Shown here piece by piece: positions 2,075-41,300 of a stretch of 54,608 bases of DNA (its first letter is position 1; each line of letters begins with the position of its first letter). Location of the stretch: NCBI GenBank assembly GCA_009602735.1, contig WELA01003305.1:790233-844840 (forward strand), read 5' to 3'. A program made the translations under genes and the position numbers. Under the pieces are notes generated by a model. That model worked only from the letters and a program-made list of their open reading frames with translations. It did not search any database and was not told the DNA's origin. Source of the DNA: Mesotaenium endlicherianum (lineage: Eukaryota).

Positions 2075-2163
<89 letters not shown>

Positions 2164-17834: not shown

Positions 17835-20800
17835 GTCGTTCTAGGGTGTCTACTGGCGTGAAGAAGGAAACTCACAAGGAGGTTATCCCCAGGAGCCTGC
17901 CGAGAAGCAAAGGACGAGACGTTGACAAGCCTATCATCGTGGAAGGAGTCGTCAACGGCAACAAGGCGAAGTGTATGGTCGACAGTGGCGCAAGTGCAAA
18001 CTTTGTGCACAAGAAGCTGGTGAAAGAGTGGCAAATCCCTGTTCAAAAGCATTATGAGCCTAAGGAGGCAATTTTGGCAAATGGGCAGAGACTCAAGTGT
18101 GGTGCACCTACGGAAGCTATTCACGTGGAAGTAGCGGGGCACCGGAGTAAGGAAGTTATGGAGCAGGCGCAATTGGGTCACCATGAGGTGATATTAAGCC
18201 GACCATGGCTAAGGAAGCCAACCCTCAAGTGCACGGGAGCACAGGACAAATGAAGGTCCAAGGGCGTTATGGTCGAATGGAGACAGCGAAACAGGTGGAG
18301 GAAGATACGACCACAAGTAACTGTCTTCTGTCGAGCCTGCAAGTTAAGAAGCTATGCAGGGCGAATCAGGTGAAGGAGATGTACCTTGTTTCGGTGGCCC
18401 TGGCCAGGTCATCAGATGGAGCAAGCGTGAATCCTAACAGCCTGAACGAATGTACATCGCCGGAGGAGCAAGTAGTGGTGTCTGATCCCCTTGCTCAGAA
18501 AGAGCAGAGCCCAACTGCTCAAGAGAAGAAGCCTGCTGAGATGCCTGCCCAAATTAAGGCGCTGTTAGAGGAGTTCAAGTGTGTTTTTCCTGAGGAGCTA
18601 CCTGTAGGATTACCTCCACAGAGAGCTATGGAACACAAGATCGAGTTGGAACCAGGGAGCAAGCCACCAATGAGACCACCCAATCGACAATCATTCGCGG
18701 ACTTGGATGAGTTGAAGAAGCAGCTGACGAAATTATTGGAGAAGGGATTCATTTGGCCCAGCGAGTCTCCATTTGCAGCGCCAGTCTTATTTGTGAAGAA
18801 GAAGGATGGGACTATGAGGATGTGTGTCGACTATCGGGCACTCAACAAGGTCACCATCAAGGACAGATACCCACTTCCACGAGTGGACGATTAATTGACA
18901 GGCTTGTCGGGGCGAAGTATTTCTCGAAGATCGATTTGAGGAGTGGCTATCACCAGGTACGAATTGTAGAAGGAGACGTTCAGAACACTGCTTTCAAGAC
19001 TCGTTATGGGTTATTCGAGTTCACAGTCATGCCTTTTGGATTGACCAATGCACCTGCTACATTCATGGGACTCATGAACAATATCTTAAGACCCTACTTG
19101 GACCAGTTTATGGAGGTATTTTGGACGCCTCCCTGATCTATTCGAAGACCTTGGAAGAGCATGTGGAGCATCTGAGGAAGGTGTTGGAGGTCTTGAGAGA
19201 TCAGAAACTATATGGGAAGATGAGCAAGTGCGACTTCTGTCTCAAGGAGGTCAAGTTTCTTGGGCACATAGTGGGAGTCGAAGGAGTCAAGATGGAGCAG
19301 AAGAAGGTGCAAGCAGTCCGAGATTGGCCGGTACCTGCTGATATTCATCAACTCAAGCGTTTCCTCGGCATGGCGAATTCTTATCGACGTTTCATTGAAG
19401 GATTTGCCAAGGTGTGTGCACCGCTCACGGACATGTTGAAGAAGCAGGAGAATTGGCTATGGGGTGACAAGGAGCAGCAAGCTTTTGAGAAAATTAAGGA
19501 GCTATTGACACAGGCACCTGTGTTGCCAATTGCGAGTCAAGAGCTTCCTTTCACGATCATCATGGATGCATCAAACTGCGCAGTGAGGGCCATTCTTCTC
19601 CAAGACCACGGCAAAGGATTGCAGTCTGTGGCATATGAGAGCAAGAAGTTGAGTCCTGCTGAGGAAAACTATGCAGCACATGAGCGGGAGATGTTGGCTA
19701 TTATCCAGGCTTTGAGGATTTGGCGATGTTATGTGGACGGCTGGAAGGTGTTCATAAAGACCGACCACAAGAGCTTAGAGAAATTTATGACGCAGCCAAC
19801 GTTGACACCAAGATTGGCAAGGTGGATGGAGTTTCTGCAACAGTTCGACCACAAGATTGAGTATTTACCTGGGAAGATCAACCCTGCAGACGCTTTATCC
19901 AAAAGATGTGACCTTGCAGCTGTCTCAGTCATCAAGGAGAGTATGGACTTCAAGAAGAAGCTTCAGAGAGGTTATGAGGAGGACCCAGAGTTTGCTGATC
20001 GTGGAGCAGCTAAGTCCAACTCGAGTATGCAGAAAAAGGACGGCATATGGTATTATGGTGATTCCAAGAGAGTGGTGGTACCTGACATCAAGGAGCTACG
20101 AGACTTACTACTTGCGCACATCATGATTGCTTGTATGCTGGACACTTTGGAAACGAGAAGACGGCAAGCGTGCTGAAGCGGGAGTACTATTGGAGAAATA
20201 TGGACAAGGACATCGAGGAGTGGATCAGGAGTTGCGATGCGTGCCAGCGTAACAAGACACCAAATCAAAAGAAGGAAGGTACATTGCAGCCTATGCCAAT
20301 CCCAGAGTATCCTTGGGAGGAGATTGCGATGGACTTCATCACGTCGTTACCAGTGAGTGGTCAAGGGCACAATGCAGTTTGGGTTGTGTCTGATCGGCTC
20401 AGCAAGATGGCTCACTTCATTCCCATGAAGAAGACTTGTATGGCAGCAGATGTGGCACGGCTATTCTTTGATCATATTTTCAAGCTATATGGGTTGCCGA
20501 AGGTGATTATTTCAGATCGGGATCCAAGGCTTACTAGCAACTTTTGGCGGTCATTGTTTACTTTGATGGGAACCAAGCTGAGCATGAGCACTTCCTATTA
20601 TCCTCAGACAGACGGGCAGAGTGAGAGGCTCAACAGAACTCTGCAAGAGGTGCTCAGGAGTTTCACTATGGAGGACCCTTCAGAGTAGGACAAGAAGCTG
20701 CCAGGGTTGGAATTTGCCTACAACAACAGCATGCAGGGATCCACCAAGCAGTCACCACTCGCTATGGTTTATGGGAGAGAAGTATATCATCCTGGGAACA

Positions 20801-21430
20801 TCTTGTTGGAGAAGGCCAAGGAGACTCAGGTTCCTACTACACAAGCGTTTATGGAGCAGATGGCCAAGACTTGGGATATGGCGAAGACGTGTATTTGGAA
20901 TGCACAAGAAGAGCAGGTCAAGCATGCTAATAAGCATTGGAGGGAAGTGACATTCCATGTGGGTGACAAAGTACTCTTGTCAACAGAGAACCTACCTTTC
21001 ACGGGCAAGAGGAAATTGCGGACACGGCTTACAGGTCCCTTTGTGGTGCTCAAGCAGGTTTAATCCAGTGACCTACAAGTTGGAACTTCCTTCAGGCTGG
21101 CGTATCCATGATGTGTTCCATGTCAGTTGTTTGCGGCCATACGTTGACCCGAACGAGGGACATCCAGGACGACTACCTACACCGCCACCACCGGTCGAGA
21201 TCGATGATGTATTGGAGTATGAAGTGGAGGCGATCGTCGGCGATCGACGAGTCAAGCGAGGTCAACGACTTGTTCAAGAGTATCTGGTCAAGTGGAAAGG
21301 CTACCATGCGGACGACAACACTTGGGAGCCAGAGGCCAACTTGACTCATTGTAAGAGTAAGTTGAGACGTTATGTAAAGAATGCGTCGAGGACGTCGCAC
21401 CTTGAGGAGGGGGATGATGTAAGGTCATAG
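17815..21430 (+). pseudogene. pol: Element B pol (PR-RT-RH-INT-chromodomain), multiple frameshifts and stops
   Basis: The same motifs as element A, spread over ORFs 17750, 18205, 18753, 19121, 20131, 20707 and 20957. Confidence 0.95.
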
Positions 21431-22161
21431 GTTTATAAAGTGCATTTTTGATTTTCATGTATGTATATTTTTCTTGTATAGAAGTCTACAGTGCATTTTT
21501 GTGGTCATTTTGATATAAAGTTCATCGAATTTGGTTAAGTATTGAGAGAGTTATGGATTTCCGAAGTTTAATTAGTTTTGAGGTCGATTGACGACTGTCC
21601 TTAATTCGCCTTGAGCGCGACCGTCAAATTGACCGACAGCGTCGAGCGATCTGGCCCGTTCGAGTGAACTCAAACCTTCACGTAAGTTTGGCTGACGCAG
21701 AGTGCCGACTAGGTCAATTTACCTAGAAGTTTCGATTTAGCCTAGCGCGCCTAAGATAGAATATTTCAGTAATGTCGATGCATGTATGTGGACGTCAATT
21801 CGGCCCGACACGTCAGATGAGACTGATCTGGCCTATTCACGAATATTCTGGAAGGGAAGATTTGACAAACACTTAGAAAATTCCGTAGCTTCCTCCTGGA
21901 AAGGAGCACTTAGGCAGAAAACTGTAAATAGGCATCACTTCTTTGTTTCTTATCAATTTTCACTTCTGTAAATTTCTACGGGTTTGTAATGACAAGACCT
22001 TTTATCCTACTTCATTTGTGAGAAGTTTCTTGCTACTCAAAATATTGAGTAATTTTCCTAAGCTTTCTTAGTGATATGCTGCTGCACTCTTTAGTATGAT
22101 TGCAACTAGTTCCTTTCCTCGTGAGTTACTACGCTTCCACTAGGGCACTCTGCCCCTTTCA

Positions 22162-22468
22162 GCACACACCTCCTGAAAGAAAATCAGATTCTGATGCCAC
22201 TTTTGCACCTCAACCTCCTACTATCTCTAAGCTAGCTAAACAAGCTGCTATACAAGTCATGAGAGAGGCAAGAGCTAAGGTTGCAGATGAAGTGAGGCAA
22301 GTGCTTGAACACAGAGAAGAGGAAGACAGGTTGATTGCGCAACAAGAGAAAGGGCATGCTCTAGCAATGCAAGCGTTGGTAAGAGTTGGCAAGAACTTGT
22401 CATCAAAAGAGCTTATGAAGAGAGCGCGCGAGGTAGTTGCCAACAGGAGAAAGACTCAAGCTATTTAG
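22162..22468 (+). pseudogene. C-terminal fragment of an unknown helical protein, convergent with the Transib/RAG1-like transposase and cut by element B
   Basis: Open frame ...ISKLAKQAAIQVMREARAKVADEVRQVLEHREEEDRL...RRKTQAI* followed by a T-rich 3' region. Confidence 0.45.
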
Positions 22469-22609
22469 GTGAGCTGCATATATACATGTTGTACTTTGAT
22501 TTAATTATTTTTTTCCTACACTAAGCATGTATTCTAGCTTCTCTACTTCTCCAGCTGTTTCTTCTATGTTTGTTGGATCAGATCTTGTTACAACTGGTGC
22601 TAGCTGTCG

Positions 22610-24071
22610 TCAATTAAACACCACCTTCTTCCTCTTTTGCCTTTCATTTTTACTCAATGGTAGCTCTATAATGGTTAATAGAGCTCTCTTCCCACTCTCT
22701 TGATGTGTTGTCTTGTCTTTTCTCCCTTTACTATACACTCGTCCTGTATCATCAACCATCACCTTCCTCTTGTTGGTCTTTGCTGATTTCCTCCATTGAT
22801 GCAATACCTCTATACCTTCTCCACTGAGTTAATCTACGTCCCCATGCCTCCTGGTCATATTCCCTATGTGGCACTTGAATATGTGTATGTACTCAGTAAT
22901 GTGGTCTGTTGCGCAAGCTACTACAAACTTGTCCTCAAAGTCTTCTGCAAGGGCCTCCACAAGAGAAGTTTTAGCTTCTCTCTCGTCGCCTGTGTCTAGT
23001 GCAGATATTGGCTCCGTAAGGGCAGCCAAGCACACTCCATAAGCATCCCATGCTTCTAACACGGCTTGTAGCTGTTCTGCATCATCAGGCTGGTTACAAA
23101 AGACACACTCTACCAGCTCTACAAAGTGCTCGAGGAGGCGGTGGCGCTCCCATCCATGAAGCTTGGCTTGGCTGCCCTATTTCTCTTCTCCCCTTTCTTC
23201 AAGGCCTTCACAGCCTCCTTAGGTATTGATGCCTTCACCTTCTCATTCAAGAGCTTGCAGAATTCATCCTCTTTGGCTTGCCTCGGTGGTAAGAATGCAT
23301 GCAAAGTTCTCTCATGAAGTGTAGCTGAGATTCTCAAGTTCAAGTGCAGTACGCACACAACACAGTCATTAGGAGGTATGTTAAACAATGGTGGCTTCTT
23401 GTGTCTCTGTCCCTGGTGCTGGAGCTGGTAATTCAATCTGGCCTTAGTGCTATCCTTCTCTGGCTTGCCCCATGTCGTCTTTTTGATGTACTTGTCCAGG
23501 TCTGACAATCTTCCGAAATGTTTTGAGCGATGTGGACACATCATCGGCAACTTGCCCAAGTCAGGAGCATGAGCTGCACCCTTCATCCCCTCCAAGGTGC
23601 GAAGGGCACCGCGGTGACACCTGTCGTGGATGTTCTTCGACGTGCAGAGGCACCATAAGCACGGGTATATTGAGCTTGCTCAAGTCAGCCCAAACAAGCT
23701 GTTTCTAAATTTGTAATCGCCATCCTAATAGAATTTGACTCTGATTAGGTCCTCTTCTACATGCAGGCCTGCTGTACTGACAGTGCCCATTTTCTCCAGC
23801 AGCCTTGAAGACACTTCTTGTATGCTATTGTAGTCACCCTGACCTTCAAAGCATACGAGGGTGCAGGTATTAGCTGCTAAGTTTGTCATGCCCAAGCTGT
23901 CCTTTGTTATACTTTTGACAGCTATTGTAGTCTAGTCCACTCCCCTGTGTAGTGCTCCAGCATCTCTCATGATCTGCACCCTTACTACTCTGCCTGGTTA
24001 GAGCTGCAATTGTACTATGCATTGTCTTTAAGTCTCTTGCAATGACAAGGTCACTGTCAGCCCATCTGCAC
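22610..24071 (-). pseudogene. Transib/RAG1-core-like DDE transposase, catalytic part (stops and frameshifts)
   Basis: VRVQIMRDAG (D1, ~23956-23970); NTCTLVCFEGQGDYNSIQE; VKFY*DGDYKFRNSLFGLT*ASSIYPCLWC (D2 plus CxxC); PLFNIPPNDCVVCVLHLNLRI; ITEYIHIFKCHIGNMTRRHGDVD*LSGEGIE (HxxxxH plus catalytic E, ~22808-22822). These are collinear with the RAG1 core motifs. Confidence 0.85.
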
Positions 24072-24612
24072 TGTAGTCATTTGAGTTCTAATATATTAGT
24101 TTGCAAATTATTTAATGCTTTTGAATATATTTGGAGTAGTATTGTGTGGAGTCAAGTGTGAATAGATACTCTAGTGACTTGATTCATGTTCTTTGAACCT
24201 TCTAAGGCATTTTCAAAGTTAGAGGAAGGACCTAGAAGAACTCCATGTGGCAAAAGTCAAATGTGCCGTTTTTAGGTCAAAAGGACATGTGTACATTATT
24301 CTAGAAAGAGGTGGCAAGTTTTGGGATGTGTTGGGTGCCAACACATCAACATGCACCTTCCTAGAAATTACTTATGTAGCAAGTATATAAACAAGAGCTA
24401 GAACATAGAATGACATTCCAGAATCACTCTCGTACGTGCCAAAATTCCAGAAATATATTAACTTTCAAGAAGCCATCTCTCTTTCAAGAAGCTACCACTT
24501 GTGTTTAAAGATCCTTGTCTTGAATAGATAAAGTATTCTGTTTTACTAAGTTCTTTATCTATCTGTTTCACTACAGTGGTATCGGAGCTAGGCACTTTGG
24601 TAGCACAAGAAG

Positions 24613-26280
24613 ATGGCCGATCCTCAAGACCAACAGCAAGCTTTTGAAGAAGGCATTTCATCTCCAGGAGGGCCTCCTCCAGCGCCGATGGGAGAGCCCA
24701 CTCAAGGAAATCTGTAACAACAAGAAGCACCACAAGGAGGAGCACCGTCAAATCCCGCAGCAGACGCTATAGCAAAGTTGACCCCACCAAAAGGAGTTCC
24801 CGCAAATGAGTGGGCAGCTTTCCTAATGACCGTCCACAACCAAGTGGGCTTGGCCACCTATAAAGCAACCGTGCAAGCGTCAAGAGAAGCTATGGCTGCC
24901 ATGGAAGCCCCTATTGGAAGCCCCTATTGGAAGCAAGGCTCAAAATCCAGCCCCGGCTCAAGCGCCTCCACAAGAGCCTCCGAGAGCAAGGAAACTCATC
25001 AAGCCCGGCAAACCCGACACTTTCAACCCCGGGAAAGGAGCCAACCTGACTTTATGGCTCTACCAAGTGGAGACATACCTCGCATTCCTTGAAGTACCCG
25101 AGGAGGACTACGTTCCCTTTGCCGTTACCTTACTTAGAGGAGCAGCAATATCATGGTGGCGTAACTATCAAGCGGCTATATATCAAGCTATGGCGCACCC
25201 CGTTTGCGGCCATGAGCCCCCACTATCATATGCAAGATGGGCAGATTTTCGTGAGGCTCTCAAGAAGCAATTCATGCCCATCAGTGCGGAGAAGATTGCC
25301 CGAGGAAAGCTCCACCATCTCAAGCAAACGACGTCCGTTCAAGAGTATACATCCAGATTTCACTCCCTCACTCTTGAGATCCCCAACATGTCTCTCGAGG
25401 AGAAGATTGATCGCTACATCTTTGGCCTCAAGCCCAAGGTGGCAAAAGAAGTGGAATCACGCGACTTGACGGACTTTTTCAAAGATCATTGAAGTGGCTC
25501 AAAAGGTGGATACCTTGGATTTCAAGCACTCCGTGCCTTCATCTTCACGGGCACCGGCGACGCGGGTGTATGGAGCCCCTTCCACATCCAAATCTGGACC
25601 CACACCCATGGAAATTGGAGTTATTAAAAGGGACCCCGCGGCTGCCCGGAAGAGTGGAAGACCCTCCAATGACACTTATGATGCAAGAAACTAGCAAGGA
25701 GTGAAAGCAAGACTCTCCCTTGCTGAAAAAGAAGCTCTTATGACGGTTGGACTATGCTTTTAGTGTAAGGAAAAGAGCCATCGTGCACTCTTATGCCCCA
25801 AAGAGTTGTCAAAAAACGGACAGCGCCGGTAGGCCAGGAGCCTACCACCCCAAGACCCACTTCACAAGAAGACAACAAGCCAAGTGAGGTGGAGACCTCC
25901 GTTGAAGACGACGTTCCAGCCCCAATGAGTTTGAGAGGTTACCTTGGAGGAGAGAAGGTCCACATCTTGGTGGGTAGCGGAGCTCAAGGCAACTTCATCG
26001 CTGCAAATTTTGCCACCAAGCACGGTATTACTATGCAAACTCTTGACCACGACGAGGAGATTATGATGCCTGACGGATTCTCCAATATTACCCCTTCCAA
26101 GAAGACGTACCCCTTGGCACTCCCTATCAAGTCCTTCAAGGATAGAGTAGTGTTCTCCCCCATGCAATTGGGCAAGTACGTCGTCATCCTAGGGACGCCT
26201 TGGTTGACCAAGCACAACCCCCAAGTTGATTGGAGGGACAGTATTATCAAGATCAAGAATGACATCACTTCAATGGTCCC
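24613..26280 (+). pseudogene. gag: Element D gag and protease (disrupted), with -1 slippery site AAAAAAC at 25811-25817
   Basis: KPDTFNPGK...LKQTTSVQEYTSRF...GLKPKV; PTPMEIG; gag ends SKNGQRR*; protease ILVGSGAQGNF...VILGTPWLTKHNPQVDW in the -1 frame. Confidence 0.88.
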
Positions 26281-26299
26281 TATGACGAAGACACAAACC

Positions 26300-29200
26300 T
26301 CCTTACACTTGACCGAGTGTACAGGTGGCATCCAAAAACAAATAGCCAACTGGACCTAAGGCAAGTAGTCAAACCCCCTCTAGTATCCACGTTGACTTTC
26401 CATACGTCAGTCAACACACCGTACAGACCCAAGTCTCAATATGCTCATCTTATCTGATTATCTCGCTAGCTATGACGAGCCACAATGCCACAGTAAGACA
26501 TGTCACGCACCAAGCATGGCAACACCAAGAGCTCGTTCAGCTCAAGCACTCAAAGTACTCATTGATCGCGGCTGCTCTCGGGCACTGAACCTTTAATAAG
26601 TCATGCGAACTAAAGAGAGTTAAAGGAAAGTCCTTGCGTTCATAAACTCAAGCCCTTAAACCCTTTAACCACATTAGGTCAAATAATCCAGCAGACTGAC
26701 TTAACCTAAGTCAGCAATCACATAAGATCCGCATCCAAAAACCTCTGCACACTTACTAGACTTATCTTAAGCTTAAACCCCAAGCTCCTACGATCCCATC
26801 AAGTATCACCAAAGCACCGTCTCACACATAGCATTCAAGCACAAGGCACATACCCTAAACCTTCCAGCCCACGTCAATGTGGCAAACGAGAGGAGCACAC
26901 AATGTTACAGCCATGGTTGGGAATAGAGGGTATCTGTAGGATGCCATTGTTGCTGTGGAAGCCTCTTCTCATAGAAGTTGCAGCATGCTGAAGCTTGTGG
27001 ACGACGTAGTGCACTTGGACCGTGGCGACGAAAACCTGTCGTAATCCATACTTGGAAACTTAAGTTAGTAAATCATGTGTGCACGCACTGTCTCAATTGC
27101 TCAACACATGCAGCCATACCCAAGCTCCCTCAACCGAACTGCCACACAAATAATGAGAGAGGTACGTCTCTTGCAAAGCAACAAGCTTAAACCCGAAGGG
27201 ATAGCACAACAGACCAACAAGTCCTCTAGCACCGCTGGAGTGCACACCCCTCTCTATACTAGCCGTGGATTGCATATGACAACACACAACGACTATGATC
27301 AAGTGAGGTAAATGAGTCATATCCAGCTTGCTATGATGCAACTCCCTTGAGGCTGCCCTTGATGCTTGCAGACACCTCTTCCATCAAGCCTCCACTTCAG
27401 GCTTCTCGTTGCGTGTAACTGTACACAAGAGGCTAGGAAAGTCAAGTTAGTATGCCGCATAGTACACTGAGCTAAGAGACACACTAGGTGAGCAAGTGGA
27501 AGGATCCTGGACAGGATGTGCAATGCTCTACATCATACACTTCCCAAGCTCCACCTAGACTCATCATACCACACAAGTAAGCCTCACACATTTACCTCAT
27601 GAGACAAAGAAGACAAGCACAGACATTAGAGAAAGGACTTAGCTCCGATACCACTGAAATGAATCTTGCTTATTCAAGATTAATATATTTCATTTAAATA
27701 TATAAGATCAGAGATAGGTGGAAGCGTGTGAAATCAGGGAGCGATCTTCGCCCTCATAATGAATTCCATTTACTCATCTACACCCCTTGACTCATTTACC
27801 GTAGTGTGCCATAGTTGCACACTGACACGAGGCACAAGTAAGAGGCGAGCTGGAGGACTTGAGCTTCTCCTTTAGAAACTCATGGCCTCTTGCCTACCAG
27901 GCATGCAAGCATGTATAGCACATGCACAACATCAGGGGACTGAATAGCGAAGGCGCTCTCATTCAGGTGACCATAATGTAGCTAAAACACATCCCACTGA
28001 CTTAGGTGCAAACCCTTGGAATATGTCCGCTGTGTGACCCCAAAATATCAGAGGGCATAACTCTGCCAATACTACTCCAAATTGAGCAAACTCAATGGAA
28101 ACGGATGTATCTTCACGAGATCTTTCCGGAATGTCCTAGTTCGCTCCATTTGAAGCGTAGACGAAGCAACCATGTCAATTTCCGTGAAGGTTGGTCATTA
28201 GAACGAACCCAAAAGTGCACAGCATACCGTAGAGCAGGTGTAAAATGGGCCCTGCTGTAATAGATTCACTATGCACACCTAAGTAAAGACAGAAGAGACC
28301 ATCGACATTATAGACGTTCTCGCAATGCATGGCTTGAATGATCTTGTTCAGTTCGATGCACAAACATTCTTCTTGCTAGCTTGGGGTTACAGTGCGAAAG
28401 TCTTACCAGGGATCTATGCACGCTGTTGTCATTGGCTTGCTAGGTGCTTGCTGCAATTACAATAGGTGCCATGTATGTGCCTTTAGAGAAGAACTCGGTT
28501 TTGAGCTATACTGAGTTTGCCCATTGTCATTGGTTGAGTCTATGTGATCCCAATGCTTGCCTCGCCCTCCCGGAAACTATGTAAGATGGAGTCATCAGAT
28601 CTTGACTAGACTGATGCAGCTAGGGTGTGGTGTTTACCACGCGTAGCTAAGCTCATGGAAGGCAACTTACACACTGGCTTGTTGTCTGTTTGACAGACTG
28701 AGACCAGCAAGCAGAGTGTGAAGCAATGGTGACATACAGGTCGAGAGAGGCCGAGGAGTTGGCATGCTGGACGCTGCCACGTGACGCTTCTCCACCTGTC
28801 CTCTGGGCAACTTCAGGCAGTAAGGCCTAAAGGAGGGAGTATCCTGAAACATCAAAACTATGATACAGTTGGTTGTTTCTCTTCCCTTTTTACTTGGATT
28901 GTTGACTCTCACTATTTGGTGGTTGTCATTTTGGCGTATGTCTTGCTAGGAATGACTGGTATGAGTCATTGTATGCATGCGTAGGTAGAGTCAGCTAACT
29001 GAGCTACTCTTTGGTACTGGAGGAACTTACTAATGGGGCCGATTGTCTTTATCTCATAGCAAGCTATCTACACTTCCAAATGGAGGGGTGTAATACGCTG
29101 GTGAAATTGGGTTATTCATGGATAGAGCTTTATGGTGAGAGGGACTGAATGGCAGTACACTCTACCCTATGCCACTTTGGGCATTGCTCTAATCCTGAAA

Positions 29201-30896
29201 AATGGACTTTTTTTTTTTTGGGGGGGGGGGGACTTTCTTTCTTGCTGACTTGATGTTTGCACTTTGTGTCCTCCCTCGGTATTCCTTTGTTGATTTTCCT
29301 CCACCCACTCGTACCTCCGCAATCCTCTGTGACTGTCACTCTGTGTGGTTCCTATGATGCGGAGTCGTAGGCCCTTTTTGGTGTGCTTATGTGGTTTGAG
29401 CTGTCGGGTCGACAACTATTTTAGTTGGGGAGAGGGAGATGGGATGTGTATTAGGAGTGTTCAGTAAGCTGTGCTTACCTGCATACTCAGCAGCAAGTGT
29501 ATGTACTAACTGAGTCATACACTGCCACATCCTATGTAGGTACTGCATTAATATCAGGAGCATCAGTGACTGACTGGTGCAAACTGTGAGTTGCAGTACA
29601 CTGTTGGAGCAAGTGTACGTACTAACTGAGTAAGTACATTGCCATAAGTTGGGATTGGGTAGCAATGATGCATGACACATCAGGAAACTGCTTGAGGTGA
29701 CCAGCATATTGCTCAAAACCATATGTTTCTTTGAACTTAGAGTGTTATGAAAATGTGGTTAAAATTTAAAATTTTCATTGGCTCATTAACCTGATGTTAC
29801 TCTTCTTGTGAGGGCATTCAATGCCATCAAACCAGTTGGTCTTTCTCTTCCTTCAGTACGCTGAATTTTGAGCAGGTACCTAAGTCACAAGAAATTGCTT
29901 GTGAGGAGCTTTCAAGGTGTGAGCACCGCAGGAGTTGAAGACCAAGAGAAGGAGAAAAGGCTTAGTTCAATATGCTGAGCTTTAGTAACATTCTTTCATT
30001 GTTTGACCTCAAAAGGAGGCTGTTCGATTTGGGTGTGGTTTGCATGGTGTGAGGTGCTCTATTATGTCTTTCAACCGGAAGAACTATTGTGAGTAGGGGT
30101 AAGTCCATGCATGTCTTCAGTTAATGATTGTGAAGTCAGATGGTTGCTTGCATGACAATTTGTTGTGATTGATTTTTACTTGCACTGGGTAGGTGAATAT
30201 ATCACGCTCATGTTTTGTTTGCTTGCTTTGCTTCACCTAGTTGACTGATGTGTATTATTAAATAAAAGTATCATATGATGAGTGTTGTCGAGGCGACAAC
30301 GATTTAAGTTGGGGAGACTGTAATGAATCAGTTCATTATTTATTTAAGTAATTGCATATATAAATATAATACTAAATAAGTATTATGTCTATATACTCAC
30401 ATGTGCGAGTTCATCTAAATGAATGTATGTCGATGTAATGCGAGTTTACTTACCTTGTCAAAAAGGTCAGCAGGATGACTTTTGTACCGTAGTGTAGTTT
30501 GCTGACTTTGTTGAAAAGGTCAGCAGGACGACTTTAGGTTTGCACCTAAGTCAGTGGGATGTGTTTTAGCTACATTATGGTCACCTGAATGAGAGCGCCT
30601 TCGCTATTCAGTCCCCTGATGTTGTGCATGTGCTATACATGCTTGCATGCCTGGTAGGCAAGAGGCCATGAGTTTCTAAAGGAGAAGCTCAAGTCCTCCA
30701 GCTCGCCTCTTACTTGTGCCTCGTGTCAGTGTGCAACTATGGCACACTACGGTAAATGAGTCAAGGGGTGTAGATGAGTAAATGGAAGTCATTATGAGGG
30801 CGAAGATCGCTCCCTGATTTCACACGCTTCCACCTATCTCTGATCTTATATATTTAAATGAAATATATTAATCTTGAATAAGCAAGATTCATTTCA
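26300..30896. mobile_element. Family C non-coding LTR element (LARD-like) nested in element D: inverted 5' LTR+PBS (27642-~28222, minus) and PPT+3' LTR (30319-30896, plus)
   Basis: PBS at 27642-27653 abuts TGAAATGAATC; TAAGTTGGGGAGAC precedes TGTAATGAATCAG at 30319; the LTR ends GATTCATTTCA at 30896; no retroviral ORFs in the interior. The left boundary is approximate. Confidence 0.75.
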
Positions 30897-33386
30897 CATA
30901 GAGAAAACGGCGTTCAGGATAAGATATGGACATTTTGAGTTCATGGTCCTGCCATTTGGACTCACCAACGCGCCAGCAACTTTCAAGACTATGATGAACA
31001 CCATATTTCAACCCATGTTGGACAGATTTGTGGTGGTATTTATTGATGACATCCTTATCTACAGCAAGACCCTTGAAGAGCATGCGAGACACTTCAAAGA
31101 AGTCCTCGAAGTATTGAAGCAAAATAAGCAATTTGCAAAAGAGTCAAAGTGCGAGTTTGCCAAACAAGAAGTGGAGTTTCTAGGTCTCCACGTGACTGCT
31201 GATGGCATCAAGATGGACCCCAAGAAGACCACGGTGGTGGAGGAATGGCCAACCCCCACGACCAAGAAAGAAATCCAGTCATTCTTGGGATTTGCCAATT
31301 GGTACAGGAGATTCATCCAGAGCTTCTCGCACATTGCAGCCCCTCTCACGGATCTACTGAAGAAAGACAAGCCATATGTTTAGACCAAGAAAGAGGAGGA
31401 AGCATTCCAACAACTGAAGCAAAGATTGACGACATCCCCGGTGCTCACACTCCCAAGTCCAAACCCAGATAGGCCCTTCCACGTCATCACCGATGCATCT
31501 TCTTACGCAATAGGAGCAATCCTGCTTCAAGACCAAGACAAGGGACTGCAGCCCATTGCCTACAAGTCAAGGAAGCTAAATCCAGCCGAGCAAAATTATA
31601 CAACCACAGAGCGAGAGGCGTTGGCAATTGTACATGCCTTGAAGGTTTGGCGCTGCTACGTTGAAGGACGCAAGGTGCCGGTCACTACAGACCACGAGGC
31701 GTTGAAGCACCTCCAGACGCAGTCGTATTTCTCAAGAAGACAAGCAAGATGGAGCGAATACTTGCAACAGTACAACATCACGATTCAGTACCAGCCCGGC
31801 AAGACAAATCCGGCTGACCCCCTCTCAAGACTGCAATTAAATGCAGTGATGATATCCTTGAAGACGGAATTAGAAGCTCGATTTTCAGCCGCCTACAAAA
31901 GAGACCCTTACTACAAGAACGGAGAAGCGGCCTTGGACTCATACAAGAAGCAAGAAGGCAATTATTGGGTGAGGCAAGACACGAGCCAGAGATGTGTTCC
32001 TGATGACTTAGACCTCCGGCTCTAGCTTCTACGAGAAGCATACGACAACCCTCTTGGAGGACACTTTGGTATCCTAAAGACCACGGGCGTTCTAGCCGGG
32101 ACTTATTGTTGGCCAGGCATGTCTAAGCAAGTCAAGGAGTACTGCAAGAGCTGTGCCACATGCCAAAGAATCAAGCCATCATCGCAAAAGGCGGGTGGAC
32201 TCCTCCAACCACTACCAATCCCCGAAAGACAATGGACGGACATCTCAATGGACCTTATTGTGGACCTGCCCGTGACACCTCGAGGCCATAATGCAATACT
32301 CACGGTGGTTGACAGACTTACTCAGATGGCTCATTTTATTCCCACGACGACTAAGGCTACAGCACCACAACTTGCAAGACTCACTTTGACAACATCTTCC
32401 GACTCCATGGACTACCATCAAGAATTGTGTTGGATAGACATCCAAGATTCACAAGCCATTTTTGGAAAAATCTCTTCAAGAACTTGGGTACATCGTTGGA
32501 TATGTCCACTGCCTACCACCCGCAATCAGATGGGCAAACTGAGCATATGATTGGTACCCTAAAGACCTCTCTAAAGGCCTACATGTCTACTTTGGAGCAA
32601 GATTGGGACTTGTACTTGACCCCTCTGGAGTTTGCCTACAACAACACGACGCAGGCCTCTACCCAAGAGTCCCCATTCTTCCTCAACTATGGCTTCCATC
32701 GAACCACGCCGCTGAGCTTCACGGCTGGCCGTGATAAATTACCTGCAGGACCAGATTTTAGATAGACATTAGAAGCAGCCCTTATAGCAGCGAAGAAAGC
32801 TCTACAACAAGCGCAAGATGCTCAAGCAAGAGTCGCAAACTGGTCCAGAAGAGAAATTACGTACAGAGTGGGTGACAACGTGTTGCTATCATCCAAGAAT
32901 ATTTCTCTAAACAACAGGCCTGCCGGCAGCAAGTTCTCCCCCAAATATTTGGGACCCTTCAAGATTATCCAGCAAGTCAACCTCGTTGCTTTCAAGCTAG
33001 AACTTCCCCAGACTATGCACATCGACCCCGTATTCCACGCTTCCCTCTTCAAGCCATATGTGCAATCCGACAATAAGTTCCCAAAACGAGTGACAACCCC
33101 ACCAGCCCCAACAATAGTGGATGATCATTTGGAGTACAAAGTGGAAGACATTGTGGCTATGAGAAATTTCAGGAGACAGCAGCAATACTTGATCAAGAGG
33201 AAAGGATATCCAGATTCTCAGAATAGTTGGGTGGCGGCGCACTACCTTGACAAAGTTCAGAGAAAGCTGAAACGCTTCTATGCCGCCAACTCCCATCTTG
33301 GACCAGCCCCAAGTCTCTCTACAAGAAGCCCGAAGACTTTAGGGAGGCAGCCTACCACCATCAAGAAGCAGCAGAAGACCTCTTGA
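30897..33386 (+). pseudogene. pol: Element D pol remainder (RT from IEKTAFR, RNase H, integrase, chromodomain)
   Basis: FIDDILI; ITDASSYAIGA; ISMDLIVDLP; YHPQSDGQTE; EYKVEDIV...YLIKRKGY. The RT N-terminus is missing. Confidence 0.93.
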
Positions 33387-34029
33387 AGTCAGCCTGCAAG
33401 AACATGAAAGAGGAAATATTGACATTAGACACTTTTCTCTTCTCGCAGTTTCTAAATAGGAAACTAAAAATGCTATTGGCAATAGGTCTCTGCATTATAA
33501 ATTTTGAACATTTACCTGGCTGTAGTGTATGAGTAGGTGATTTTAGAGTCCAAGTTCGCTCAATTTAGATACGTGGTTAGAGAGATAAAAATCTCTGAAC
33601 ACAAGGGGGTAAGGCTGCTGGCATTATTAGGGCAGAATATGCCTTCTGACATTGTGCCCTACACTGAACTTGGAATGCTTTGAGAATCAAGACTATGGTA
33701 GAAGCCCTTACTGCGCCCATTTAGAGACTAACTTTGCAAAATTTGAAGAAGTACAGGACTTAAGATTTTCAGAAGTTTCTGCACAGATTTGGAGAAGTGC
33801 CTACTCTCTCAGCTCTCAACAACACTGCAAAACTTAAAATGCTCTCAAATTTGGTGATCTGGTACAATTCTCGGATGCGCTCCGTCTGGCATTAGAATTT
33901 TAAGATATAAAGCAATTCTGTAGACGCTATGAATTTTTGAATTTGTGGCAGATTCTAGGTCAAATTGTATAATTTTCTTTATCGTCAAGGAGTAGCCTAG
34001 CAAATAAGGTCACACCACCCACGACCTTG

Positions 34030-34156
34030 CCTAGTCTACCTTACATGTGTAGCACCTGACTTGGCGCCTTTGACTAATCCTCTTCACATGTGTGGCATCT
34101 GACTTGAAGCTGTTGACTAGTCTGCTCCAGATGTGTAAGACCTGACTTGACGCGCC
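34030..34156 (+). repeat. Three degenerate ~43-bp tandem repeats in the 3' UTR of element D
   Basis: Recurring unit CTA(G/A)TC...ATGTGT....CTGACTTG. Confidence 0.75.
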
Positions 34157-34284
34157 GAGACGTCGCTTTTTCTGTCGGGGAGGTGATGTAGTGATTTTAG
34201 TTATAATATATTAGTTTGCATATATTTTAATACTTTTGAATATATTTGGAGTAGTATTGTGTGGAGTCAAGTGTGAATAGATAC

Positions 34285-35006
34285 TGTAATGAATCAGTAT
34301 ATTGGTTGATATAATATTCATTTAAATATAACAGTTAAATTAGTTCAGTCTGCTCCACTCTAGTTTAATAATCGATCTGCTGGACTTTATATTTAATATC
34401 AGTTTAATGACTTAGCCAAAAGCAGCAGGCTGAAGTCAACTTAAGTCAGCTTGCTGACACATTCTTTGACAGCCAGCTGACTTCCGTACTCGGTAGCAGC
34501 GAACTGCCTTGATATACATCTAAGTGTGGTATGCTAGATGAATGGCCAGATGACATCCCTACGATAGATGGCGATTCGGGATGATGGGAGATGGCGGTGG
34601 ATTTGGTTAACCGAGGTCCTACCAACGTGGTTAACTCCCGGGTAGGCGGTGCCATCGCACTGGCCGTTGAACAGTAAACTCATTCCATGTACATATGCTA
34701 GGCATTGCTCTCGAGTTCGGCATTCGGAAACGAGGCCAACTCTCTTTTACAGCTTACTGAGAGAGATCTGAATCCAAGGCGAGAAGCCATTGATACGCAC
34801 TGTCATCTAACTTTGCTTAAGTATGAGTTTACTGATTTGCATTATTGATGCTAGTTTACTCGCATTTGACTTACGAGTATTATTCACTGCTAGTGTGTTG
34901 TCCTTTGCCGTTTAACCAGTTAACGGAAACTACCATAAAGATTACTTACTGATATGAAGATCTTTATTAATTGTTAATCGCCTATTTGGTAAGTCGATTC
35001 ATTTCA
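34285..35006 (+). mobile_element. Solo LTR of family G inserted in the 3' LTR of element D, TSD GATAC
   Basis: TGTAATGAATCAG...GATTCATTTCA flanked by GATAC at 34280-34284 and 35007-35011; the empty site is visible in the 5' LTR of D (~24165). Confidence 0.96.
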
Positions 35007-35422
35007 GATACTCTAGTGACTTGGTTCATGTCCTTTGAACCTTCTAAGGCATTTTCAAAGTTAGAGGAAGGACCTAGAAGAACTCCATGTGGCAAAAGTC
35101 AAATGTGCTGTTTTTAGGTCAAAAGGACATGTGTACATTATTCTAGAAAGAGGTGGCAAGTTTTGGGATGTGTTGGGTGCCAACACATCAACATGCACTT
35201 TCCTAGGAATTACTTATGTAGCAACTCTATAAACAAGAGCTAGAACATAGAATAACATTCCAGAATCACTCTTGTACGTGCCAAAATTCCAGAAATATAT
35301 TAACTTTTAAGAAGTCATCTCTCTTTCAAGAAGCTACCACTTGTGTTCAAAGATCCTTGTCTTGAATAGATAGAGTATTCTATTTTACTAAATACTTTAT
35401 CTATCTGTTTCACTACATGCAC

Positions 35423-36153
35423 TCTCTGGAGATCCCACTTCAGCGTAGATTTTGGCTGCCAGATTCTCTACTTTCCTCCTGGAAGGCAGCTTGGGGAGGG
35501 AAATCTTGGTGTTCTTGATGTACTTAAACTCCCAAAGTCTTGTTGCTTGAGAGTATGTCTTTGACATCATGTTGACAAGCATTTGGTATTGCTCTTGAGA
35601 AAGTTTCAACTTGTACTTGATAGCCAGCCCTAACCTGTCATCCCACTGCTCCTATATTTGCTTCACTGTGGCCTTCTCTATGATTGGCTTCAGGTGCAAT
35701 TCTGTTGTAATAGCTTCCAGCATGTCTTTGTTCTTTGGCTTGTTCAAGAAGGCTGTTTATGACTTGCTCATGTTTGTCTCACATCCAAACTTGTACCCCA
35801 TAAATAGCTTCAGATCATTGCTCATTCTTTGCCATGTTCTTGTAGATTCTCCATCTACTCTACGACGCTTTACTGGAGGAGTTTGAGGGGCTACCATTGA
35901 TCCCTTTTGCTTCAGGTTTCTATCTCTCTCCTAGCTCCTCTCTAGTCTTTCTTCATGCCCATGAATTGCCGAGCAACCTGTACCTCCCTATTGGCTGTTT
36001 TCCTCTTCAGGCTTTTGTTTTCTTCTGCATATTTAGCATTTCAGACTTGTATTTCTCTACTTTACTCTCTAGCCTCTTTGAAGTATCTACAGGTGCTTTC
36101 TCAACACCTGTTTTCTTCCTCTTCAGAAATCTGCCACCTGTTCCTCTAGGCAT
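35423..36153 (-). pseudogene. N-terminal part of the same Transib/RAG1-like transposase, separated from the rest by element D
   Basis: GLAIKYKLKLSQEQYQML resembles RAG1 CLAIRVNTFLSCSQYHKM. The segment becomes contiguous with the catalytic part across the TGCAC TSD of element D. The start codon is uncertain and may lie beyond element F (~43262-43330). Confidence 0.75.
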
Positions 36154-36587
36154 GTTTGTGTTAGTCTGCACTCTTCATATGTCACTGTAACGATCCGAGC
36201 TATTTTAGGCGTATTTGGGACGTTTTCCCAATTACCTCAAGTACGTTATACTATTTATCATATTATTTGATAAATGATTGCATCAAATTCAATTATTTGA
36301 CACAGGCGTGTGTCGATTAATTCCTGGTCGATTGGCGAAACGACCGAGATACTATTGCAAAAAGCGTCGTAATGTAACTCGACTACTTCGCAAAAGTACG
36401 ACATAATTATTCATAAAGTTACTTTGATTATTATGAGATGATAACTTAAAATATCACTGATTGATTAAGTTGATTTGATTGTCATTATTTCGGATAATGC
36501 ACAGTCACAGATTTCGCATTTACGACCAGTTGTTAATACGAAGAAACAGTCGTAAAAGCCAAACGTCACACAATATGCAAAGCGACG

Positions 36588-36658
36588 TTGCATCCGAGCG
36601 GATTCGAACCCGTGACCTGTCGTTTGAAACGTTCACACCTAACCGATTGACGAAGGGG
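36588..36658 (-). promoter_or_regulatory. tRNA-like Pol III A/B-box module, antisense, inside the F LTR (second copy ~42740-42808)
   Basis: The minus strand reads CCCCTTCGTCAATCGGTTAGG...CAGGTCACGGGTTCGAATCCG: a perfect B box GGTTCGAATCC about 43 nt after an A-box-like sequence. It does not fold into a full cloverleaf. Confidence 0.55.
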
Positions 36659-37196
36659 TTTTTGCTTATGACGAAAGCAGGTGTAGGCCACTCCGCGAAC
36701 AAAGTCGCAACTTTTCAAAAAGTCGCGTGAAAGCGAATACGCCCGTTTGGCGTGAAACAGTTTTTCAGGGACCGTCAAAAAGTCTCCAAACGGCCAAACG
36801 GCGCGTTTCGAGCATTCGGCCGAATGGGTTGTACCCCTTCGTCCGTTTACGTTGAACATGAACCAGTGCCCTAGGTGGTGACTCGAAGCACTCCAATGCC
36901 TCATGTCGTGCAAGTATAAATACTTGCAAGAGTCATTGTGAGTGCAACTCTCACAAGCACATATTCTACGTTAATTTTCATTGTCGCTTTCTTGAGGATT
37001 TGTCAATTTGCACAAGTATGTAGATTTTCTTTCCACTCAATCAGATATTCCTTGAATACCGAGGAAAAGATCCTCTCAAAAAGCATAGACGTCACATTGG
37101 TATCGGAGCCAATCTCGGTTTCTCCAAAGAATTTATTTTTTAGTGGTTGGAATATATTTGGGCAATATATTTCGGGGTATTTTTCGTACTGGATGG

Positions 37197-37375
37197 TCAC
37201 CCATCCCAGTATTGCCCTGCGCTCCGGTCGCTTATCATAGTTTTGGGGCAGATTGTCGAGCGGTCGCCCATCCCAGTTCTGCCCTGCGCGACGGTCGCTT
37301 ATCATAGTTTTGGGGCAGATTGTTGGCGCAGTCACCCATCACAGTCTTGCCGTGCACTACGGTCGCTTATCGTAG
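37197..37375 (+). repeat. ~67-bp tandem repeat (about 2.6 copies) in the leader of element F; a second 25-bp duplication lies at ~37499-37547
   Basis: CCCATCCCAGT..TGCCCTGCGC..CGGTCGCTTATCATAGTTTTGGGGCAGATTGT repeated. Confidence 0.9.
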
Positions 37376-38347
37376 CCACTTTCGACGGGAATTTTTTTCT
37401 CCATTTTTCGGCGTTTCCTAGGGTTTCCAGACAAATCCTTACGCCGGCGCCAACGCAGCGGTTGTTGGTGCAACTGCGCTGCTGCCGCTCTTGCCGCTGG
37501 CCACGACGACAACCTCAACGGTTGGCCACGACGACAACCTCAACGGTCCCTCAGGCCAACTAGGCGCTGTCGGATTTTTTTCCTTTCTTCAGCCCCTTGC
37601 ACATGTTCAAGTCAAAATCTGCACCCGTTTGGGGCTTTTTGCACCGTTTGCACACAAAGGGGTCCATAGGGGACTCTCTTTCTCATCCCCACCCATCCCA
37701 CCAACCATGTGTTCTTGGATGCTATGCGCGTGTTTTGATATACACAAAGGATTTTTGCCCACGGGTCTTTTCCATGACAATGTCGCACTTGTTGTCATTC
37801 TACGGGAATTGACTCTCGCGCACAATTTCTGGATTCAGAAGATTGTCGTCCATATTTGGTCAGGTTTTGACCAGATTTGACATGTTTCTTTGACAATGGG
37901 TTGATTTTGTTGCTCATTTGAGTTTGTGGATTGTTTCCCTTTCTTTATTGCTTTGGCACGAGGCTTTTGCATCTGTTCTATCTCGTCCATTTGTAACTCA
38001 CCCCTCTCATATGGATTTGAGCTTGAAAGCGATAAGAACACCACCCTGCTTATCACAACGCTCACTCAAATCATGTCAAGGTTGACATTGCATTTCACTT
38101 GATAAGTGCCAATTTATTTGAGCTGTTGACAACACAATTTGGTGAGCAGGAAATTCTAGGTGTTTGTGCGCACGCACCAAAGGTTATTGTTCACTCTGGC
38201 ATACCCGATATCAATGTACTTCAAAACGAATATATTTGTATGCAAGTGTTGAGCTTTGCTCAGTTCTTGGAACTCGAGTGCATCCATGATGCCATGTTCT
38301 TGCACTTTTAGCCGCATGATCCTACCCTTGACAAGTGTTACGCACAC

Positions 38348-41300
38348 TTGGCTCGTTTAAGGAAAATGCACAAATGCCTTGCACCAATTTATATTGCTGC
38401 ATTCGCAACACGACACCCGTATGGTGAGTCAATAACTCATTTTCGGGCTAGATTGACAATGCAAAATGGGATTTTGGTAAAGGACCTCCACATTTCTCAC
38501 ATTCCTCTCAAGGCGAGGACATTGCTAGTGATGCATAATGCTTCTTTGGGGTTAAGTATGACATTTGAAACAAAAGTTTCAGGCAAATCATGCTTTACAG
38601 TCATTGATTCAGGCGCATCAGTGAGCTTCATTAGTGCACGTTTTGCACAAGGGATGAAGTTGCTTCCAATACTCAAGGACGAGACCCTTTGCCTCGGCGA
38701 TGGCTCGTTAGCTTGTATTTTTGGAACAATTAAATTACCACTCAGCGTGCAGTCCTTTCATGGGCGTGAACAATTCTACGTCACTGAATTGCCCGCTGGT
38801 ATTGATGCAATTTTGGGTACGACTTGGCTTACGCAGATAAGTGCATTGCTTAACTTCCGTCAAAAGACATGCATTGTTCGCAAAGGGACAAGGAAGATTA
38901 CTCTCCAGTCTCTCAAGCCCGATATGGCCATAGAAAGTCCTTCGAAGACTCTTCTATTGTCCATAAAGCAAGCTCAACGTTTGGCAAAACACGGTCAGAA
39001 TGTTTTCTTTGGATTACTAAGACCCAGCAACTTCAACTACGCTCTTTACGCAAGAGCCGATGTTAGACGTTACTGGTCATGAGGAAACCCTCACAGCTGA
39101 ACTTTCTGCTCTTTTGCAAAAGTACTAATGAGTGTTTCCAAGTGAAATACCCGCCGGGCTTCCGCCTGACAGGGGTATTGGACATACAATCCCTCTCATT
39201 CCCGATTCTCAACCGACTTGGCGACCACTTTATCGCCTAAGCCCGTTGAAGATGAACAAAATGAAAGACCAAATTAGCGACTTGCTGGAGAAAGGATGGA
39301 TTGAGCCGAGCTCTTCTCCATTTGGCGCCCCCATCCTATTTGTTCAAAAGAAAGATGGGACGCTTAGAATGTGCATTGATTATTGTGCGTTGAACAACAT
39401 AACGGTCAAGAACCGCTATTCGTTGCCTCCCATTGATGATTTGTTTGATTTGTTGCAGGGGGCATGCGTGTTCTCCTCGCTTGACTTAGCCCAAGGCTAT
39501 CATCAAATTTGAATCACACCAGAGGATGTCCCCAAAACAGCGTTTCGTACGCCTATTGGGCACTTCCAATACAAAGTCCTCAGTTTTGGACTTACCAGTG
39601 CACCAGCGACATTCCAAAGTACGATGAACGATTTGTTTAGACCTTACTTGGGGAAATTCGTCCAGGTTTACCTCGACGATATCCTCGTCTATTCAAAGAA
39701 CAGGGACGAGCATTACAAGCACCTCGAGTTGGTGTTGCAAATCCTTCGTGAGCAACAGCTGTACGCTAAGCTCAAGAAATGTTCCTTCCTAAAAGACGAA
39801 CTTTTGTATTTGGGACATATAGTGGGTTCGAAAGGGGTGCGCCCTGACCCAGCCAACATTGCGTGCGTCGCTGACTGGCCTGTCCCAAAAGATGTACATA
39901 CCGTACGTTCATTCCTCGGGTTAGCTAACAACTTTTGTAAGTTTATGCAAGGTTGTTCAGTGATGGCCGCGCCACTCACTGCTCTGACAAGGAAAGATAA
40001 GCCGTTCATTTGGGATGACTATACGCAACATGCGTTTGAGCGCATTAAGTATGCACTCACTAATGCGCCACTTCTTTCATTAGCCGATCCCAACTTGCCT
40101 TACGAGGTAGTCGCCGATGCGTCTGGTGTTGGAATAGGGGTTGTGCTGCTGCAGGCAGGCAAGCCTATCAGTTTTGAGAGTCGTAAGCTGACACCTGCCG
40201 AACAAAATTACTCAACGACAGAGCAGGAGCTCTGGGCAGTCATATATACGTTTGAAAACTTGGCGATGTTATTTGGAAGGCTGCAAAGGTTTGACAGTGG
40301 TTACGGACCATTGCCCAAATACCTTCTTTCAAGTACAGCCAACGCTATCGAGGCGCCAGACGAGATGGTCTGAGTTCTTGCAACGATTCCACTTTAACTG
40401 GGCGTATCGCCCTGGTCGCAATAATGTTACGGACCCTCTACGTCGAATTCCCCTTCACCACTTGATGTTGGGGACTGTTGCTAGTTTGCAAGGATGAAAT
40501 GGTCAGGTGTCAAGGGCGGCCACCCTTGATTCTGCTGTACCCCCCCAGACGACTGGCGTTGCACGGCCTGGTGACGCGGGCCAACCCAATTTGGGTAGCA
40601 TGCAAACCTCTGAAATACTTGACCTGCATCAACTATTTCATGAGGGCTATCTCAAAGATCCGTTTTTCCTAGATCTCTAGGGTACTGACTTGAGCGGTGT
40701 AGCCGTGACGATGGACAGTATGGATAAAAGGAAAGGATACTCAAGCTATTTGTTTGAGGACGGTTTTTGGTGGCACATTGGGCGCATTGCTGTCCCACAA
40801 GGCCGAGTAAGACATGTGCTACTACGAGAAGCGCATGACTCTCCTTACTCAAGTCACCATGGAATTACCAAAACCACACACACCTTGCGTCGAGGGTACA
40901 TTTGGCCGTCCCTTAAGGTTGATGTTGCCGAGTACATCGTCAACTGCGCAACATGTCAGAGGAATAAATCGAGCAACACGTTGCCAGCTGGGAAGTTGCA
41001 ACCATTGGAACTTGCATGTGCTCCTTGGGAAAGCATTAGTCTCGACTTTGTCGTGGAATTGCCTACCACCGATAGAGGACACGATGGGGTGTTAACGGTC
41101 GTAGATTGTTTCACTAAGATGGTACACTTTGAGGCCACTAAACCACCACTTGATGCCGTCGAGACCGTGCGTCTCTTCGTAGATCATGTGTTCAAGTTGC
41201 ATGGCATGCCGAAAGAGATCATAAGTGATCGTGAAAGAAGATTTACGAGCCACTTCTGGCAGGAAGTTTGCTCGCACTTTGGCACGAAACTTAAGATGTC

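Follow-up and report, generated by a model that had tools for sequence, protein, structure and literature searches.

A dead, retrotransposon-riddled DNA transposon with a predicted RAG1/Transib-fold transposase in Mesotaenium endlicherianum

Is a relative of the core of RAG1, the recombinase that puts antibody genes together, hidden in the genome of an alga, and if so, to which lineage does it belong? The question is raised by a stretch of 54,608 nucleotides of Mesotaenium endlicherianum (contig WELA01003305.1 of assembly GCA_009602735.1, positions 790,233-844,840 of the forward strand), hereafter called the window. The window consists mostly of nested Ty3/Gypsy long terminal repeat (LTR) elements, and an earlier note had proposed that minus-strand fragments between them form one RAG1/Transib-like transposase. 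In our analysis these fragments are best explained as a dead, LTR-riddled copy of a multi-copy DNA transposon with a predicted RAG1/Transib-fold transposase of the Asp-Asp-Glu (DDE) type, which likely represents an undescribed, green-alga-associated lineage marked by a His-Cys-Cys-His (H-C-C-H) insert. The probability given to this explanation is about 0.82.

The first step was the joining of the pieces. Element D, an LTR retrotransposon in the transposase reading frame, is flanked by TGCAC copies at 24067-24071 and 35418-35422, and when D and one copy of this target-site duplication (TSD) were deleted, the 5' frame on the minus strand continued without a shift into the middle piece. The pieces were matched with profile A1, an alignment of 30 relatives which does not include the window copy, though the middle piece served to find its members. 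Columns 27-217 of A1 matched 36035-35427 (E 5e-23), columns 219-519 matched 24072-23155 (E 1e-70) and columns 510-682 matched 23185-22622 (E 5e-27). These matches are collinear with no profile gap across D, and the reversed-translation control gave at most 2.9 bits. The join proposed in the earlier note is thus verified, and its start and stop codons (Table 1) stand as given. No further transposase piece was found in the window by the A1 profile, and six-frame scans of 3060-7520, 13560-15470 and the non-coding 5' arm gave one weak match in 18 frames.

The transposase copy is dead, as had been claimed, because it carries 10-12 stops and two frameshifts. In the matched frames, five premature stops were found in 36035-35418 (one at the very edge), five in 24069-23155 and one in 23152-22616, and one more is present at 36009 in the ATG frame. 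One frameshift lies near 23155, where sister contigs have one extra base, and we infer the second near 36010. The catalytic residues are still encoded (first Asp 23964, second Asp 23718, Glu 22810), together with the four zinc ligands (CxxC cysteines at 23661 and 23652, histidine pair at 22885 and 22870) and the LH histidine at 23346. The copy was inactivated by the insertion of D and by point decay. Since D and F were both inserted in it and their LTRs are 91-96% and 93% identical, respectively, the transposon is older than either, again in line with the earlier claim. The locus itself is a dead repeat which gives no sign of a host function.

The assignment to the RAG1/Transib fold was made through relatives. 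An exhaustive protein search with the middle piece gave 145 relatives at E<=0.001; a word-index protein search gave nothing with the middle piece and found P0005 only with the alignment. P0005, an intact protein of 762 residues whose cluster is labelled Pterosperma and comes from a transcriptome set, matched the three pieces in order at 29-33% identity. Cymbomonas tetramitiformis and Mesostigma viride are the sources of the other close relatives that carry a name. No relative was found in the metagenome contigs or viral contigs covered by the related-locus scans. Against the PDB sequences, the top 15 matches of A1 were all RAG1 and BbRAG1L (E 3e-14 to 1e-9), with best values of 3e-14 for RAG1 and 2.5e-12 for BbRAG1L; matches to RAG1 and ProtoRAG RAG1L ranged from 3e-14 to 2e-8. 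HzTransib was not among the best 60 A1 matches listed in PDB; it has a good fold score, so this does not exclude Transib. The AlphaFold2 model of P0005 (pLDDT 82) was matched by Foldseek to RAG1 (E 4e-16), HzTransib (2e-10), BbRAG1L (6e-10) and P element (1e-4). Using VIA-align, Z scores of 24.7 for RAG1 (454 residues aligned, root-mean-square deviation 3.9), 21.9 for BbRAG1L, 21.8 for HzTransib (411 aligned, 4.0), 11.6 for P element, 10.4 for ISCth4 and 7.9 for Hermes were obtained. Both the profile and the model of the relative therefore matched RAG1 best, and the RAG1/Transib-fold DDE assignment of the earlier note is upheld by way of the relatives. Among its motif pairs, LAI..Y, GD, CxxC, YxH..H and SxxGxE were aligned with RAG1 in the A1 profile alignment, the LAI stretch not being significant alone; the first-Asp and LH pairs do not appear in the printed RAG1 alignment and rest on invariance among the relatives and on the fold match. 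RAG1 clusters came up among the Atlas neighbours at 0.94, ranking after unnamed cnidarian and DUF1280-bearing clusters. Homology to the RAG1 core along its length, the mark of Transib, is present through the relatives. The combination of DDE with C(2)C and H(3-4)H lying between the second of the two Ds and the E, by which the CMCT clade is defined in the accessible part of PMC12730594, was found in the window copy and is invariant among the full-length relatives.

The lineage within this fold was analysed with an alignment of the window copy (X at breaks) and 49 proteins from the matches and cluster members, selected for coverage of the core, short or partial matches being left out. Of the 50 rows, 29 had the insert's His, its first Cys and its last His; all 28 rows of this clade apart from the window copy also have the second Cys, where the window copy has Arg. 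After the insert columns had been taken out, the 29 rows formed one side of a branch (bootstrap/Shimodaira-Hasegawa approximate likelihood ratio test 95/93; 98% of 200 bootstrap trees), and quick trees agreed on the same clade with support of 94 and 91. The other branches comprised an insert-less group of 15 rows (100/99), a Chapaev-like group of four (100/100) and two other rows. The nearest identity of the window copy is 32%; its position inside the clade was not resolved and the two Mesostigma rows did not group with it. Twenty of the 28 other clade rows were looked up and seven carried an organism name, all of them green algae. By profile comparison the clade matched the insert-less group with E 5e-47 over 400 columns and the Chapaev-like group, a profile of four rows, with 8e-17 over 180 columns.

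Between the second zinc Cys and the LH His lies a segment which we take to be equivalent to the RAG2-binding helices alpha11-alpha12 of RAG1. It has 88-143 residues in the clade (102 in the window copy), 50-69 in the insert-less group (one row 151) and 66-69 in the Chapaev-like rows. Counted by eye, it measures about 30 residues in two canonical Transibs (a flowering-plant assembly is the source of one) and about 65 residues in CthTransib_0091. The insert of the clade provides a further 30-45 residues with the invariant H-C-C-H, weakly resembles C2H2 fingers and is likely to be an extra zinc-binding site. The long zinc-domain segment that characterizes Subgroup I Transibs (PMC9435367) is seen in the window copy, with its 102 residues. 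The CCGHC tail (CTT1) was absent from all 29 clade rows, of which eight are truncated at the C-terminus, and is present in P0052 of the insert-less neighbour group. P0167 from Mesostigma (2844 residues) holds a complete-looking clade transposase within a long gene model having leucine-rich-repeat-like and cyclase-like flanks by eye, and is probably a merged gene prediction.

The transposon is a multi-copy family. Contigs identical to the window had a depth of 44-50 in DNA run X1, and the summed depth over 22231-24001 and 43255-44674 was about 220-2800, a sign of many copies rather than a copy number; runs X2 and X3 of the same sample agree. A contig of 1476 nt at depth 785 (about 81-85% match), which spans the transposase into the plus-strand open reading frame (ORF), has one extra base at 23155, and the contigs at 23727 all read a sense codon. 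Because sister contigs are free of them, the lesions at 23155 and 23727 belong to this copy alone. Later amplification of a younger sister subfamily with deeper coverage is likely. The transposon occupies 22162-44742, with its transposase on the minus strand, and is at least 4.15 kb long without its insertions; the limits of 22610-36153 given in the earlier note were therefore too narrow. Both D and F lie inside it as the note had held, F being in the non-coding 5' arm and not in the ORF. This arm contains an imperfect internal repeat of 140 bp (43877-44016 and 44249-44387). Element B, also suggested there as an insertion, is very likely inside the transposon because its right LTR cuts the second ORF, which has family-level depth; the left LTR of B is truncated, and neither a left end nor a TSD was found.

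The right end is placed at 44742 because the family-level depth stops there and the loose contig ends are mixed beyond it. Behind this position 13 and 12 contigs continue into mixed sequence, the consensus first base being G, and an LTR starts at 44740. Read inward, this end likely starts CACATGT, and departs beyond CACA from the heptamer of the recombination signal sequence. The search for CAC-starting terminal repeats suggested by the earlier note has thus given one likely terminus. No partner was found left of 22165; the search there gave an 11-mer with one mismatch at 9204, within a different LTR element, and no match of greater length. The 5-bp TSD of Transib is variable in some lineages according to the accessible part of bioRxiv 10.64898/2026.08.26.747230, and 5'-CA..TG-3' termini are expected for the CMCT clade in that of PMC12730594. 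Towards the left, the elements at 7525-13559 and 16474-22161 belong to the same LTR family, are inverted and 91% identical, and each has a truncated inner LTR; this inverted pair may mark a deletion of the left end of the transposon.

The second ORF ends at 22468, converges on the transposase at 141 bp from its stop and is cut at 22161 by the right LTR of B. Its visible part of about 100 codons has no stop and no Cys, is linked to the transposase in high-depth contigs and has family-level read depth. No usable Pfam or Atlas match and no homologue was found for it. It is likely a convergent gene carried by the element. In the RNA data, a polyA run (6% read) had no reads on 22231-24001, and a second run (13% read) reached a depth of at most 1 on the 5' arm; expression of the transposon could be hidden by strain or divergence in these runs. 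The LTR family at 44740-45441 is strongly transcribed, with about 900 first mates per strand in RNA run X12, and 1430 X12 reads enter it from a polypurine-like stretch.

Several points weigh against the explanation preferred here. The window pieces alone gave only noise and no meaningful match in Pfam or PDB, so the link to RAG1 runs through relatives, and the fold evidence is a predicted model of a relative and not of this copy. A2, the profile of the insert-less group, matched RAG1 equally well (E 1e-13). As this neighbouring group scores as well, a RAG1 match alone is not diagnostic, and a special closeness of the clade to RAG1 was rejected by this control. The tree was built without a reference RAG1 or Transib sequence. 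Sampling may account for the green-algal range, as 13 of the 28 relatives are nameless and eight were not looked up. Read depth is a sign of many copies and not a measure of their number. Finally, a single terminus is available with its outermost base inferred from other copies, the TSD is not readable, and LTR elements adjoin both ends.

The zinc motifs CxxC and H-x3-4-H are shared with RAG1 by already described CMCT lineages, such as Lanisha of the moss Ceratodon or EnSpm/CACTA, or by a Chapaev which lacks its N-terminal domain, and the transposase may be an ordinary member of one of these. Lanisha comes from a streptophyte (accessible part of PMC8245031), and in a Pfam scan of 45 of the 145 relatives DUF1280, which denotes Chapaev in the accessible part of PMC3985635, was found in ten (three above the cut-off), in comparison to one below-cut-off match for RAG1 and one weak match for DUF1258. 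The same scan gave no CACTA (Transposase_21-type) or Plavaka family in any of the 45 relatives (E 0.01) or the three window pieces (E 1), and Lanisha, compared by description only (MT647524), is described as EnSpm-like. The Chapaev-like rows stand on their own branch, have 126-162 residues after the LH His against 59-71 in full-length clade members, and match the clade far more weakly by profile than the insert-less group does. Their four-row profile gave no PDB match, which is weak evidence. An ordinary CMCT or Chapaev origin is consequently considered unlikely. It is very unlikely that the element is a two-gene RAGL-type transposon resembling ProtoRAG, with the convergent ORF forming the tail of a RAG2-like partner. 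The orientation, spacing and high-depth linkage of this ORF agree with such an arrangement, and RAGL has a known example in a pelagophyte alga (PMC9435367). On the other hand, the visible 100 residues gave no kelch or PHD match and have no Cys, no CCGHC tail was found in the 29 clade rows, eight of them truncated at that end, and neither the window copy nor the intact P0005 has an N-terminal Cys cluster of RING/NZD type.

A recent horizontal arrival from an animal or fungus, or a contaminant or chimeric contig, is quite unlikely as well. Cnidarian and mucoromycete proteins make up most of the two top Atlas clusters, and horizontal movement of Transibs has been reported (PMC9435367). Against this, identity to the closest relative is just 32%, those closest among the named relatives are green algae, the copy sits beneath LTR elements that have exact TSDs, many diverged copies are present in the DNA runs, and RNA runs with the same species label contain reads of two LTR families, that of D and that of the 44740 element. 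The host gene on the contig also bears on this point. Five exons of a prolidase gene at 419-3053 match protein P0179 at 84-100%; for the exon that was searched, P0179 was 98% identical and the next-best protein 73%. Its label Mesen1 is presumably the portal prefix of Mesotaenium endlicherianum, a member of the Zygnematophyceae, the sister group of land plants. The linkage of prolidase and transposon rests on the assembly. From the exon matches the host is likely a zygnematophyte alga, and the streptophyte host named in the earlier note is borne out. The streptophyte lineage proposed with it has to be qualified, since the closest named relatives include prasinophyte chlorophytes and the lineage is thus not streptophyte-only.

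Table 1. Features of the transposon and its surroundings in the window
Feature	Position	Strand	Remarks
Transposase 5' part	35418..36153	-	ATG at 36153; N-terminus predicted to be coiled/helical; helix for dimerisation/DNA binding, with LAIKY motif
Transposase middle part	23155..24071	-	first Asp, second Asp, CxxC, LH His; 5 premature stops
His-x8-Cys-x2-Cys-x~27-His clade-specific insert	23416..23571	-	within zinc domain
Transposase 3' part	22610..23154	-	zinc His pair, catalytic Glu, 1 premature stop; true stop 22610-22612
Second convergent ORF, 3' end	22163..22468	+	~100 codons; belongs to the repeat; left side cut by element B
Non-coding 5' arm, short piece between ATG and element F	36154..36185	-	
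Non-coding 5' arm	43257..44742	-	37% GC; family-level read depth to 44742
Right terminus	44713..44742	-	likely starts CACATGTAGCCC read inward; outermost base inferred from other copies
Element D, Ty3/Gypsy LTR retrotransposon carrying nested insertions	24072..35417	+	in transposase ORF; TSD TGCAC
Element F, LTR retrotransposon	36186..43256	+	in 5' arm; TSD GTCAC; LTRs 93% identical
Element B, LTR retrotransposon	16474..22161	+	left LTR truncated; right LTR cuts second ORF
Further LTR start adjoining the right terminus of the transposon	44740..45441	+	from 45442 on, interrupted by another LTR element
Host Xaa-Pro dipeptidase (prolidase) gene, last exons	419..3053	+	used for placing the host

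Some other features of the window were also observed. A young chromovirus-type element lies at 45442-54398 on the minus strand, with LTRs 98% identical, an open gag, a pol of 1276 codons and an extra ORF of 581 codons (46280-48025) which has no convincing Pfam match; a third copy of its LTR follows in tandem at 54399. A solo LTR of this family is present at 34285-35006 inside the right LTR of D, with the TSD GATAC. D also contains an inverted pair of 360 bp (27655-28014 and 30537-30896, 99.7% identical), which is either a recent rearrangement or an assembly artefact. At 14320-15470, on the minus strand, decayed coding-like frames include a CxxxxHxxxxC-like knuckle and match nothing in Pfam; beside them, at 13822-14320, lies a 500-bp element with terminal direct repeats of 151 bp. 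A decayed frame on the minus strand at about 6430-6555 weakly matches C5 DNA methylase (PF00145, E 0.003, below cut-off).

By analogy with RAG1, ProtoRAG and HzTransib (accessible part of PMC10629977), the transposon is likely of the cut-and-paste kind. A transposase dimer would bind the CAC-starting terminal repeats, nick and hairpin the flanking DNA, and the excised element would be reinserted elsewhere with a short target duplication. The element is likely to work like Transib in this respect, and may be a member of Transib proper or stand outside it. Because the insert sits between the zinc cysteines and the LH His, in the segment taken to be RAG2-binding in RAG1, it likely alters a partner- or DNA-facing surface of the enzyme. 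A wider scenario can be entertained tentatively, and is rather doubtful at present: an unnamed RAG1-fold lineage may have existed in green algae since before the split of chlorophytes and streptophytes and persisted to the sister group of land plants, with a zinc finger at the RAG2-docking segment, a convergent accessory gene of its own and young copies in this genome, and would then be an independent solution to the V(D)J step.

The preferred explanation, a likely undescribed green-algal lineage, would provide a branch of the green lineage near the base of the Transib/RAG1 radiation which is well anchored, as the copy is nested in host retrotransposons, a zygnematophyte gene is on the contig, and relatives are present as intact prasinophyte proteins, one of them known from a transcriptome, and as predictions in Mesostigma. 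Models of the origin of RAG have so far rested on animal elements, one pelagophyte RAGL and short bacterial or plant contigs. The insert lies in the segment which, by RAG1 numbering, would set RAG2-binding enzymes apart from RAG2-free ones, so that the role of this surface before RAG2 could be tested directly on intact members of the clade. The statement of the earlier note that Transibs are described mainly from animals needs qualification, as 39 Transib-like proteins in plants have already been published (PMC9435367). The readable ones are of the insect-like type, and the six Viridiplantae representatives listed there are all flowering plants. No Mesostigma, Chara, Cymbomonas or chlorophyte was found in the readable supplement of that paper, whose full species tables are maybe not all given as text, and no publication on such elements in green algae was found in a search outside Repbase and subscription journals.

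In comparison to the known systems, the nearest described kin appear to be the root-proximal Subgroup I Transibs. CthTransib_0091, placed near the root of Transib/RAG1L by Tao et al. 2022 (PMC9435367), shares with the clade the RAG1-fold core and the long segment from CxxC to the LH His. The insert-less group A2, which is the best profile match to the clade, has by eye the motifs of CthTransib_0091 and the CCGHC tail, whereas the clade has the extra 30-45 residues, no such tail and a separate branch. P0052 and its group also resemble by eye the 'bacterial' CthTransib of PMC9435367; the P0052 cluster lies on contigs of up to 2.4 Mb, and the CthTransib gene was predicted by a eukaryotic gene finder with one intron called (PMC9435367). 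These are hints that the 'bacterial' Transibs may be eukaryotic. RAG1 and RAG1L (mouse RAG1, BbRAG1L 6b40 and Aureococcus RAGL) provide the best match over the whole core of the fold and agree in the order of D, D, E and four zinc ligands, and the convergent second ORF recalls RAGL and ProtoRAG. They differ in the identity of only 14% in the fold alignment, and no RAG2-like sequence was seen here; the N-terminal zinc domains (NZD/RING) are absent from the window copy and P0005. Canonical Subgroup II Transibs (HzTransib and the flowering-plant proteins of PMC9435367) have the same fold (Z 21.8, 6pqx) and, likely, CAC ends in common with the element. They have lost the RAG2-binding alpha11-alpha12 of the zinc domain (PMC9435367), have by eye in two proteins a CxxC-to-His segment of about 30 residues against 102 here, and were unseen among the best 60 A1 matches listed. 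Chapaev (Pfam DUF1280) has a similar RNase H half, and weak DUF1280 matches were found in six clade members. It differs by the Chapa N-terminal Cys cluster, seen by eye in P0129 and absent in P0005 and the window copy, by a long helical insertion after the LH His and by its separate branch. On these sequence features, the clade is neither Chapaev nor the insect-type Transib of flowering-plant assemblies.

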